A DNA stretch of 24,178 bases, taken from IMG/VR virus record IMGVR_UViG_2537561992_000036; one strand, written 5' to 3'. Position numbers: made by a program. Numbering within the stretch: the stretch's first letter is position 1; each line of letters opens with the position of its first letter. Shown piece by piece: positions 6,001 to 9,000 of this stretch. This DNA is from a virus (taxonomy: Duplodnaviria; Heunggongvirae; Uroviricota; Caudoviricetes).

Positions 6001-9000
6001 CTCGCGTTCTTCTTTCTCTGCAAGCCATATACAATGGCGAAATTCCTTTTCCTCTTTCGTTTCCTGCGGTAGCGACATTATCCGATCGTAGTTTTTTCTG
6101 AATTTATCCAGCACCTCCGATACGGAATTGCCGGAACAGCGGCGCGCGTCATCCGCACCATACAGAGGCGCTGGCATAATTAAATCCTTATTTTTCTAAA
6201 TCAGAATGGGATGGAATCGTCGTATACAGGAGTGTTCTGCTGGTTACTACTTTGCTGCTGCGGGCCATTTCCTGAAGCTGCAAATCCAATCTTTGCATTC
6301 AGTAATTCAAGAGTGATTGATTGACCATTTTGCCCCTGATAAACATCAACCCTGATGTTTTCTCCGGTAATTTCCACAATGCCACCTTCAACAAGAACAC
6401 TACGGTAGTAATCCGCTTGCGCTCCCGGCTTGGCAAATACAACGGCGCTGTAGTTTGTCCATTCTTTCTTTTTTGTCTGGCGATCGTAATACTGAACGCC
6501 AGCACGGATGTTGAATCCGATATTTTCCCCGGTCTGAAACTCTCTTGCGGGCTTGTTTAGTCTTACAGTAATCGAATGTGCCATTAAGCAGCAGCTCCTT
6601 CTAATTCGTCTCGTCTGATGTTGTAAACGTCCTGCGCTTTGTGCTGCTCCGGTGTGCCTTCGAGCATCTTCCACGCTTTGGCGAACGCCTGTTTAAGCTC
6701 TTCTACGGTGTTTTTCTGCATTGCTGCGTCAGTGAATGCTTTTAGAACCTGTTCAGGTGTAGGTGATGGTTTTGATTGCTTTGCTGCTGCGTTCTGCTGA
6801 TGTTTATGCTCGTCGGTATCTGCATCTTTCGCATCATCAATGCCGAATAAACCATTGAGGCAATACTTGCGTGCATAAGAGCTTGTAGCTCCCGTAACTT
6901 GTGCAGAATCCATTCCTTTCTTGCTTTCTTCCTCTCGTGCAAGAGCGGTTGCCGTATGACTGTTTTCGCCATCGGTAATAGTTGCCGTGGCTTTCACATA
7001 ATACCGATCACCAATCAACACAACTTCATCGCTGATTGATAAAAACAGGCCATTCAGTAACGGCTTAACGCCTTCAAGAATATCTTCGCAGCTTCTGTAT
7101 TTATATTTGCCGAATGAGTTGTACTGATTCTTTGGCGCGTTCAGATTCTCCTGAATAGCTGCCAGTCTTGCGTAAAATTCTTTGCTCATATGATTGTTCT
7201 CAGAATGGACACGGCCCAAGGAAATAACGCTGATTTAATACTTCGACTCGGGACAAATTAAGGCATACCCGCATTCCTTCGCGGTCACCATTATGGCGAT
7301 ACCAGAGAGCTTTCTGCGTGTACATGCGCCTCTGTAACTTGCTCTCCTTCACTGTGGTTGCAAGTGACATGAATATCTCCTTCGTTACCGATTAATTCTT
7401 TCATCTGACGAATGAATTCTTCGTCTGACCAGTTATCTGTAAAACTCATTTCCTGCGATAACACGGAAGGTTGATAGCTGATTTCATCGCTTTATTTGCT
7501 TCAAGCCACATTTTTGAATCACCAATAAATCGGGCTATTACTGCCTTGTTCTGTGCAGCACGAAGCATCTGGTGATTGATGGCTATTTCATTGCGCATAA
7601 TAAGACCTCAACTCTTTTCCATCCGTCACGTAATTTACGGGTGATTCGTTCAAGTAAAGATTCATTTAATTGGAAGGCACCCATGCGAGCGCCTCCCGCG
7701 ATTGCGTAAATCATGGGTGGTTCCTTATGTTGGTTTTATTAGTAGGTTATTTTTGTTGCGAATAATTCGCCTTTTACGATGGCTGTTATGATATTTTTAG
7801 CAACATCTTCTGATGCGCCAACCTTGATAAGGTCAGCAAGTATTTTGTTATTTACTTCTTTCCGGTGAGCTTTATCCTTTGCTCTACGCTCTTCTTCGTC
7901 CTTGATTCTTTTTTCTTCTGCTATTCTGGCTTGCTCTTTTGCTTCAGCCTCGCGCAGGATTCGTTCTGCCTCCTCCTGTGCTTTACGGCGTTCTGCTTCA
8001 ATTGCCGCATGCTTTTCTCTTTCAGCTCGTTCTGCTGCCTCTTTTGCTTCGCGCTGTGCTCGTTGCTCGGCTTCAATGCGTTCACGCTCTGCACGTTCCT
8101 CTGCGGCCTTAGCTTCTGCTTCTCGCCTTGCTGCTGCTTCAATTTCGGCTTTTGCCTTTGCTTCGGCTTCAGCTCTGGCTTTCTCTTCAGCTTCTCTTTT
8201 TAAGCGTTCTTCATGCTCTCGCTTTTCCTGCTCCGCTTTGAGTCTTGCCTCTTCTCTTTGGCGGTCAAATTCGCGATCCATCAAAATCGCTATTTCATGG
8301 TCAGACTCAATTTGCTTTGCGAGAGCTTCAGCTGCTGCCTTAGCTTCTTCTTCGGCTTTAATCCGCGCCTGTTCTTCCTCATAATCAGTAAGAGGCTGGC
8401 GCGCCTTGGCTTTCAGTTCATCAAGGCGATCGCGCACTGTCTTGCGGTTAGCATCAATTAGCTTTGGAATTTCCTTCAGTTCAGCAACAAGGTCTTTGCC
8501 AAGACCATCGAGATATGTTTTCGTCTGCGCAACTTTATACGCCAGATAAGCGATCTCCTTTCTGCCCTTTGCCGTTGTGATATCAGGCACAAAGGACATA
8601 ACTTCACGTTCAACCTTTTGAAGAATTTCTTCAATCTGGTCGGCAGACTAAATTACAGTCATTGCATTTGCTTTTTCAATAACAACTAAATCTGTTACTT
8701 CACTCATATATCCTCCGTCAAAAAAATTGCCCTCACACTGGAGGGCAAAGAAGATTTCCAATAATCAGAACAAGTCGGCTCCTGTTTAGTTACGAGCGAC
8801 ATTGCTCCGTGTATTCACTCGTTGGAATGAATACACAGTGCAGTGTTTATTCGTATGCCTGTCTTTTAACCACATCAGGCTCGGTGGTTCTCGTGTACCC
8901 CTACAGCGAGAAATCGGATAAACTCTATTCACCCCTACAGAGAGAATGATGGAGATTCACCGATGAGTAACTGGTGGCAGGAACTATTACGTTTCTTCCT

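Follow-up and report, generated by a model that had tools for sequence, protein, structure and literature searches.

The window analysed here is a stretch of 24,178 nucleotides (nt) from a virus of the Caudoviricetes (IMG/VR record IMGVR_UViG_2537561992_000036), and the subject of this work is its minus-strand interval 7200-7714, ahead of the recombinase gene erf. When all open reading frames (ORFs) of at least 20 amino acids (aa) between 6600 and 8600 were listed, the interval was found to hold four short genes lying head to tail, cIII, kil and an overlapping pair that we call ORF-A and ORF-B, followed by erf (Table 1). The last of the four, ORF-B, encodes a genuine, selected protein of the family of HkaM from phage HK620. 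All four ORFs are shorter than 60 aa, and an ORF list with a cutoff of 60 aa would miss them. The 3' end of cIII is overlapped by kil over 16 nt, the ATG of ORF-A shares bases with the kil stop codon in the sequence ATGA (7449-7446), and the ATG of erf at 7189 lies 10 nt past the TGA stop codon of ORF-B. Inspection by eye placed Shine-Dalgarno sequences ahead of cIII (AAGGA, 7726-7722, 7 nt before the ATG), kil (GAGG, 7609-7606) and ORF-B (GGAG, 7380-7377), all good sites situated 6-7 nt upstream; judged from the sequence, each of these genes would be translated from its own ribosome-binding site. A scan for promoters and terminators inside 7200-7714 gave nothing beyond the expectation from shuffled sequences, and no Rfam family matched in 6500-9300.

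Table 1. Features of the window at and around the kil-erf interval, in order of position (SSB, single-stranded DNA-binding protein)
Feature	Position	Strand	Length	Remarks
SSB-like gene	6201-6590	-		follows erf; C-terminal DDSIPF resembles the tails of bacterial SSBs; same location as gp40 in HK97
erf	6584-7189	-	201 aa	single-strand annealing recombinase; Pfam ERF, E = 2.1e-44
ORF-B	7200-7370	-	56 aa	HkaM family; Sf6 gp29; C-terminal part of HK97 gp42; PHROG 1723
ORF-A/ORF-B overlap	7291-7370	-	80 nt	3' end of ORF-A, 5' end of ORF-B; ORF-B in the +1 frame relative to ORF-A
ORF-A	7291-7449	-	52 aa from ATG	Sf6 gp30; N-terminal part of HK97 gp42; PHROG 2123
kil	7446-7598	-	50 aa	FIGD at residues 24-27; Pfam Lambda_Kil; PHROG 2055
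cIII	7583-7714	-	43 aa	MIYAIAGGARMGAFQLNESLLERITRKLRDGWKRVEVLLCAMK; Pfam Lambda_CIII; PHROG 550
Homologue of Sf6 gene 33	7739-8707	-		coiled-coil gene upstream of cIII
SieB fragment	8963-9184	+	73 aa	Pfam SieB, N-terminal third only (E = 3e-8; profile positions 2-48 of 147)
orfA of IS3-family element	9236-9562	+		HTH_Tnp_1; NCBIfam transpos_IS3
ORF overlapping IS3-family orfA	9559-10449	+	296 aa	

A 631-nt region of this locus was 100% identical to four Stx1a-converting phages. Identity was 98.6% to CUS-3 and phiv205-1 across the whole query, 98.6% to Sf6 across the 92% of the query that matched, and 98.3% to Sf101. The preliminary description of the sequence had named a lack of conservation in related prophages as the observation that would tell against the small ORFs. 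They were found to be widely conserved, with 320 phage records matching the 631-nt region and the ORF-A/ORF-B module present, at a coverage of at least 80%, in 854 of 5426 complete E. coli genomes (about 16%). Taken as a whole, the interval very likely belongs to the early-left operon of a lambdoid prophage of the Stx1a-converting type.

The first two genes are, by their similarity, already known ones. The 43-aa product of cIII matched Pfam Lambda_CIII (PF02061) with E = 4e-15 and 56 bits, above the gathering cutoff of 25.7, and was identical to lambda CIII at 24 of 35 positions (69%) and to P22 C3 at 28 of 39 (72%). The central amphipathic helix of lambda CIII (residues ~14-37) is known to be important, and the core helix of the window's protein, ESLLERITRKLRDGWKR, is identical to that of lambda. 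In RefSeq the identical protein, WP_000638547.1, is called 'protease FtsH-inhibitory lysogeny factor CIII'. The gene also occupies the same position as those for lambda CIII and P22 C3, in the early-left operon just upstream of kil. Its product is shorter than lambda CIII (54 aa) and P22 C3 (52 aa), and past the core helix its C-terminus, RVEVLLCAMK, is unlike both because cIII runs into kil. This short form is common to Sf6, CUS-3 and HK633, each with a coding sequence of 132 nt, and the cIII gene of HK97 is nearly as short (135 nt). The 50-aa product of kil covered the full Pfam Lambda_Kil profile (PF06301, positions 1-31) with E = 1.7e-20, its score of 72.6 bits exceeding the cutoff of 27.6, and the identical protein WP_001243354.1 is named 'host cell division inhibitory peptide Kil' in RefSeq. 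It shares with lambda Kil the FIGD motif and the overlap with the 3' end of cIII, a layout found in lambda, Sf6 and HK97 alike, whereas the identity to lambda Kil (18 of 33 residues, 55%) is confined to those 33 aa and the C-terminus is different. No similarity to P22 Kil, a different protein at the same position, was seen in pairwise comparison; by sequence, the Kil of the window is a member of the lambda family with no relation to that of P22. The preliminary description had recognized both peptides, the one by its CIII core helix and the other by the Kil-like FIGD motif, and both identifications hold. As members of these families, CIII would inhibit the FtsH protease and so protect the lysogeny activator CII, and Kil would block host cell division.

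ORF-B aligned by BLASTP with HK620 HkaM (NP_112046) at E = 9e-10, with 17 of 52 residues identical and 32 of 52 positive, and matched PHROG 1723 at E = 9e-36. The two proteins are similar in size, adjoin a recombinase gene on its upstream side and end in PF; they differ in that their identity is 33%, that HkaM ends SELPF and ORF-B GPCPF, and that HkaM precedes the Sak4 (RecA-like) annealase whereas ORF-B precedes Erf. Full-length homologues of ORF-B were found by tblastn in an Enterobacter phage (62% identity), an Erwinia phage (48%) and a Salmonella contig (36%), and stand-alone homologues had identities of 34-66%. The Enterobacter relative is accompanied by an ORF-A; the loci of the Erwinia phage, of Salmonella S.Kent and of HK620 are without one, and the homologues there are full-length down to 34% identity. 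When 1.84 billion cluster representatives were searched exhaustively with a profile, a narrow family of 21 representatives emerged, nearly all of 56-60 aa, a few long repetitive proteins being disregarded as chance matches. Pfam and NCBIfam have no family for either ORF-A or ORF-B.

ORF-B conforms to the profile of the HkaM family, proteins of 56-66 aa with the C-terminus ...F-L-x(2-5)-P-F. In the family alignment S10, A21, E43, F50, P55 and F56 were invariant, and the best-kept feature was the C-terminal [YF]FLGxxPF, which reads FLGPCPF in ORF-B and ...ELPF in the HkaM branch. The FLGxxPF motif is retained by way of synonymous codons (CCA/CCG/CCC/CCT and TTC/TTT), which places its conservation at the level of the protein. 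AlphaFold2 predicted a two-helix hairpin (residues 7-27 and 30-49) with a predicted local distance difference test score (pLDDT) of 90.7, followed by a less ordered tail of seven residues. In all of the more than 160 loci examined the family gene ended 7-10 nt (once 50 nt) before a recombinase gene, which belonged to one of three unrelated families, Erf, Rad52_Rad22 (Rad52-like) or AAA_24/Sak4-like; the neighbour on the upstream side was variable.

The preliminary description had the 52- and the 56-aa ORF competing for the space before erf. Both are present; the substitution pattern, however, does not bear out the competition. A first IMG/VR sample had been picked by ORF-B protein identity, which made it biased and unusable for comparing the frames within the overlap, and it was replaced by a second one picked only on the DNA pattern of the ORF-A N-terminus. 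The latter yielded 114 loci fit for use and 52 distinct modules in which the pair was intact. The counts treat every site-allele as an event independent of the others, which is approximate. For the overlap, which spans 77 nt in this comparison, they were 13 of 45 possible sites for changes silent in frame B and replacing a residue in frame A, 3 of 52 for those silent in A and replacing in B, and 6 of 133 for those replacing in both frames. B-silent changes were therefore about five times commoner than A-silent ones (Fisher p = 0.0026), A-silent changes were no commoner than double replacements (p = 0.71), and the B-silent rate in the overlap equalled that in the part of ORF-B outside it (21 of 64 sites; p = 0.68). 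This pattern indicates selection on frame B, to which the tail of ORF-A adds no detectable constraint. The 56-aa ORF is thus selected as a protein, and the 52-aa ORF is kept only in its non-overlapping N-terminal half. The +1 geometry of the overlap was also found in a highly divergent Salmonella version of the pair, where it is 95 nt long.

In ORF-A the first ~27 residues are kept (MSFTDNWSDEEFIRQMKELIGNEGDIH, with the helix WSDEEFIRxM), and the C-terminal 26 residues, encoded by the DNA of the ORF-B start region, are unconstrained. The N-terminus MSFTDNWSDEEFIRQM recurs with four to five unrelated tails ahead of Erf, Rad52-like and RecT modules. The product is 52 aa long here, 56 aa in the HK022 type, 35 aa in the HK140 type, where a 102-aa gene and RecT follow, and 60 aa in the Salmonella type, which overlaps an HkaM-like gene before a Rad52-like gene. 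Whatever the upstream gene, these variants always begin on its stop codon, as ATGA, and W7, S8, F12 and R14 are invariant across variants with different tails and neighbours. An unannotated copy in an Enterobacter phage (MSIADTWSEDAFVRLMQDLIGSEGGLH...) was 44% identical over 36 aa (E = 2e-12); 13 of its first 27 codons differ, mostly by conservative replacements, with the hydrophobic positions kept and an unrelated tail. AlphaFold2 predicted a single helix at residues 9-21 and a low-confidence tail. Two further variants, P0078 and P0079 from E. coli and Salmonella, carry one or two extra in-frame units of 21 nt (EFIRQMK repeated) with the frame intact. In many loci the mosaic breakpoints coincide exactly with the start codon of ORF-A (ATG, 7449) and with the end of ORF-B (stop codon, 7200), and the pair therefore moves as a single module. 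We consider it probable that ORF-A encodes a genuine short peptide that works through its N-terminal amphipathic helix (WSDEEFIRxM), which is similar to the start of P22 Arf, and that the tail overlapping ORF-B is incidental.

Several observations count against a functional ORF-A. In the part of ORF-A outside the overlap, the contrast between silent (5 of 37) and replacement changes (13 of 200) among close relatives was not significant (p = 0.17), and one sampled copy has a stop at codon 8 (S8*). The conserved 3' portion of this part also houses the ribosome-binding site of ORF-B, which accounts for part of the conservation. The ORF-A start, which would give 57 aa if placed at the upstream GTG at 7464, has at its ATG only the poor Shine-Dalgarno sequence AGGA at a spacing of 1 nt; coupling to kil termination is therefore probable, and ORF-A would probably be translated by ribosomes that terminate at kil. 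A literature search that included ribosome profiling found no expression evidence for ORF-A or ORF-B. On the strength of such points ORF-B could be the sole gene, and ORF-A a non-functional open frame whose 5' conservation reflects a recombination 'boundary sequence' together with the ORF-B ribosome-binding site. The lack of frame-A constraint in the overlap, the probability of ~0.29 that 26 codons are free of stops by chance, the absence of ORF-A from the Erwinia phage, S.Kent and HK620, and its frequent omission by PGAP all agree with this explanation. Against it stand the peptide pattern, which in the Enterobacter phage has diverged by 56% yet is kept through conservative replacements, the invariant core residues, a start that always lies as ATGA on the upstream stop codon and the tolerance of in-frame 21-nt duplications; we judge it unlikely. 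A palindrome within ORF-A, GACGAA/TTCGTC, was considered as a cause at the level of DNA or RNA and rejected; it is not conserved in the Salmonella, Enterobacter and P22 versions, which likewise speaks against ORF-B as the only gene.

The two ORFs might also be the halves of one gene, either joined by +1 ribosomal frameshifting into a fusion of ~82 aa or split by a frameshift mutation. HK97 gp42 is indeed an in-frame fusion of ORF-A to ORF-B with 83 aa (locus L006, 1105-1356), at least eight database proteins of 76-82 aa fuse A to B at different points (P0001, P0002, P0005, P0021, P0023, P0024, P0027 and P0031 are fused-frame entries), and two strongly diverged versions of the pair both have ORF-B in the +1 frame. 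In the unbiased sample, however, the split form was the norm, being found in 73 of 74 modules, and the sole fusion was HK97 itself, which arose from two separate 1-nt insertions lying 7 nt apart. The other fusions mostly come from one to four sequences and are largely assembly singletons; their junctions are scattered, a picture expected of random indels or of errors in sequencing. Moreover, ORF-B has its own Shine-Dalgarno sequence and ATG, and its stand-alone homologues begin at the same residue; no slippery site was seen by eye, and the RNA fold of 7320-7470 was unremarkable (z = -1.29). We regard the one-gene explanation, programmed frameshifting included, as highly improbable. A further alternative grants ORF-B translation only, as a leader that brings ribosomes to the recombinase start and whose peptide is without function. 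The kept spacing of 7-10 nt fits such a leader, as does the family stop codon, which is always TGA and is followed in most homologues by GG(T)G, the Shine-Dalgarno sequence of the recombinase gene. What makes it very unlikely is that the amino acids of ORF-B are maintained through synonymous changes, that replacements are depleted in the part of ORF-B outside the overlap (20 of 209 possible sites against 21 of 64 for silent changes, p = 3e-5) and that the hairpin fold is predicted with confidence. The reading of ORF-B as a selected protein, with ORF-A as a probable short peptide ahead of it, is therefore retained.

The preliminary description had further pointed out that P22 carries arf in the interval between kil and erf, which its record bears out, and had proposed alignment of the small ORFs with it. 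ORF-A and ORF-B likewise lie between kil and the recombinase gene; P22 arf, in contrast, directly abuts erf, and P22 is without an HkaM-like gene. The alignment gave a short N-terminal motif for ORF-A, FSDEEFI/WSDEEFI in common with the 47-aa P22 Arf (pairwise E = 0.013), and failed to place either ORF in the Arf family. The codons for [FW]SDEEFI differ between the two genes, so that the resemblance lies at the level of the peptide rather than the DNA. With hhalign, ORF-A matched Arf weakly, at a probability of 28-36% (P = 4e-4 to 6e-4) over 21 columns, and ORF-B at a probability of 0.1%; neither hhalign nor pairwise comparison found similarity between ORF-B and Arf. The hidden Markov model Phage_Arf (PF17585), which recovered P22 Arf as a positive control at E = 1.9e-35, matched neither ORF-A, four ORF-A variants nor HkaM at E<=10, and did not match ORF-B at E<=1. 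ORF-A could nevertheless be a divergent true homologue of P22 Arf, an accessory recombination function, and as such would stimulate Erf-mediated recombination. Its position after kil at the head of the recombination module, the motif shared in different codons, the hhalign probability (P ~4e-4), the small size and acidic character common to both proteins, and the name 'accessory recombination function protein' given by one nr source to a 61-aa ORF-A variant (P0080) are in favour of this. That the profile misses all five ORF-A variants, that ORF-A and Arf fall into separate PHROGs (2123 and 2445) and that the similarity spans only about 7-21 residues make true homology doubtful in our view. Membership of ORF-A in the Arf family is accordingly not established, and an Arf-like role is possible; the molecular function of Arf is itself unknown (PMC12315714). 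In the Erwinia phage vB_EhrS_59 (locus L008, 1055-1204) a 49-aa gene upstream of the HkaM-like gene ends ...KDFDFIRALYEMV, which is loosely like SDEEFIRQMKELI of ORF-A and SDEEFIALI of P22 Arf and may be a more distant relative.

As to the role of ORF-B, two points weigh against one in recombination. HkaM, first annotated 'arf' by position, was afterwards renamed as an orphan whose function is unknown, and it was dispensable for oligonucleotide recombineering by Sak4 and SSB (PMC5928155), which leaves gene position as the ground on which a recombination role of ORF-B stands. Foldseek comparison of the ORF-B model with the PDB returned generic helical hairpins only, none at E<=0.001. We tentatively propose, as the likeliest of the roles considered, that ORF-B would be an accessory protein of the recombination module working by protein-protein contact.

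The ...PF-COOH end of the HkaM family recalls the tips of SSB proteins, which read DDDIPF in E. coli, NDYPPF in HK620 and DDSIPF in the SSB-like protein encoded after erf in the window. The product of the latter gene had no match in Pfam or NCBIfam; HK97 gp40, at the corresponding position, has been classed as structurally SSB-like, 'SSB-1b' (PMC12315714). In HK620 the last six residues of SSB are required for the binding of Sak4 to SSB-coated DNA (PMC5928155). Speculatively, the HkaM/ORF-B family could be a general accessory of phage recombination modules, a two-helix scaffold presenting an SSB-like ...PF-COOH tip, with ORF-A as an Arf-type partner peptide. The tip of ORF-B would then sit in the SSB-tail site, either on the cognate recombinase or on host partners of SSB, and would compete for or bridge that interaction. 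Mimicry of this kind would explain why the family travels with three unrelated recombinase families (Erf, Rad52-like and Sak4). The proposal draws on a resemblance of two residues and on gene position, and we consider it improbable as it stands.

Nothing in 7200-7714 is itself new, ORF-A and ORF-B being known hypothetical genes. Both are annotated as hypothetical proteins in Sf6 (genes 30 and 29), CUS-3 (ECRS218_0052/0053) and HK633. The pairs Sf6 gp30/gp29, HK97 gp42/gp42.1 and that of CUS-3 are the same overlapping ORFs with 94-100% protein identity, fused only in HK97. PGAP called ORF-A alone in the 100%-identical strain E2865 (L222), ORF-B alone in JNQH498 (L223) and neither in many genomes. 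The families phrog_2123 and phrog_1723 are both labelled 'recombinase', and the label has spread to RefSeq phage records such as those of Sf6, HK97 and HK633; no similarity to a recombinase was detected behind it for ORF-A or ORF-B. A literature search found nothing specific on HK97 gp42 or on Sf6 genes 29 and 30.

Some features upstream of cIII were noted as well. In the homologue there of Sf6 gene 33 (322 aa), codon 20 has changed from Q to a premature stop (~8648-8650), leaving an ORF of 286 aa from an internal methionine, and RefSeq treats the identical locus as a 'TolA' pseudogene with an internal stop. Gene 33 is described in the Sf6 record as 'similar to phage D3 Orf53', and D3 gp53 is reported to be among three factors that render D3 sensitive to Gabija defence (2025 preprint, PMC12407980). 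Farther upstream, on the plus strand, the partial SieB match is followed by the IS3-family element, which suggests that an insertion sequence has disrupted the superinfection-exclusion gene sieB.

In summary, the interval illustrates that an ORF cutoff of 60 aa strips functional lambdoid early genes from a sequence, in this case cIII and kil. The automatic pipelines are inconsistent on the ORF-A/ORF-B pair, even though about one in six complete E. coli genomes has the module. With the 56-aa gene placed alongside HK620 HkaM, a small family emerges that is fixed ahead of three unrelated kinds of phage recombinase gene. If ORF-B modulates the loading of the recombinase or mimics the SSB tail, it may matter for phage recombination and for recombineering tools.

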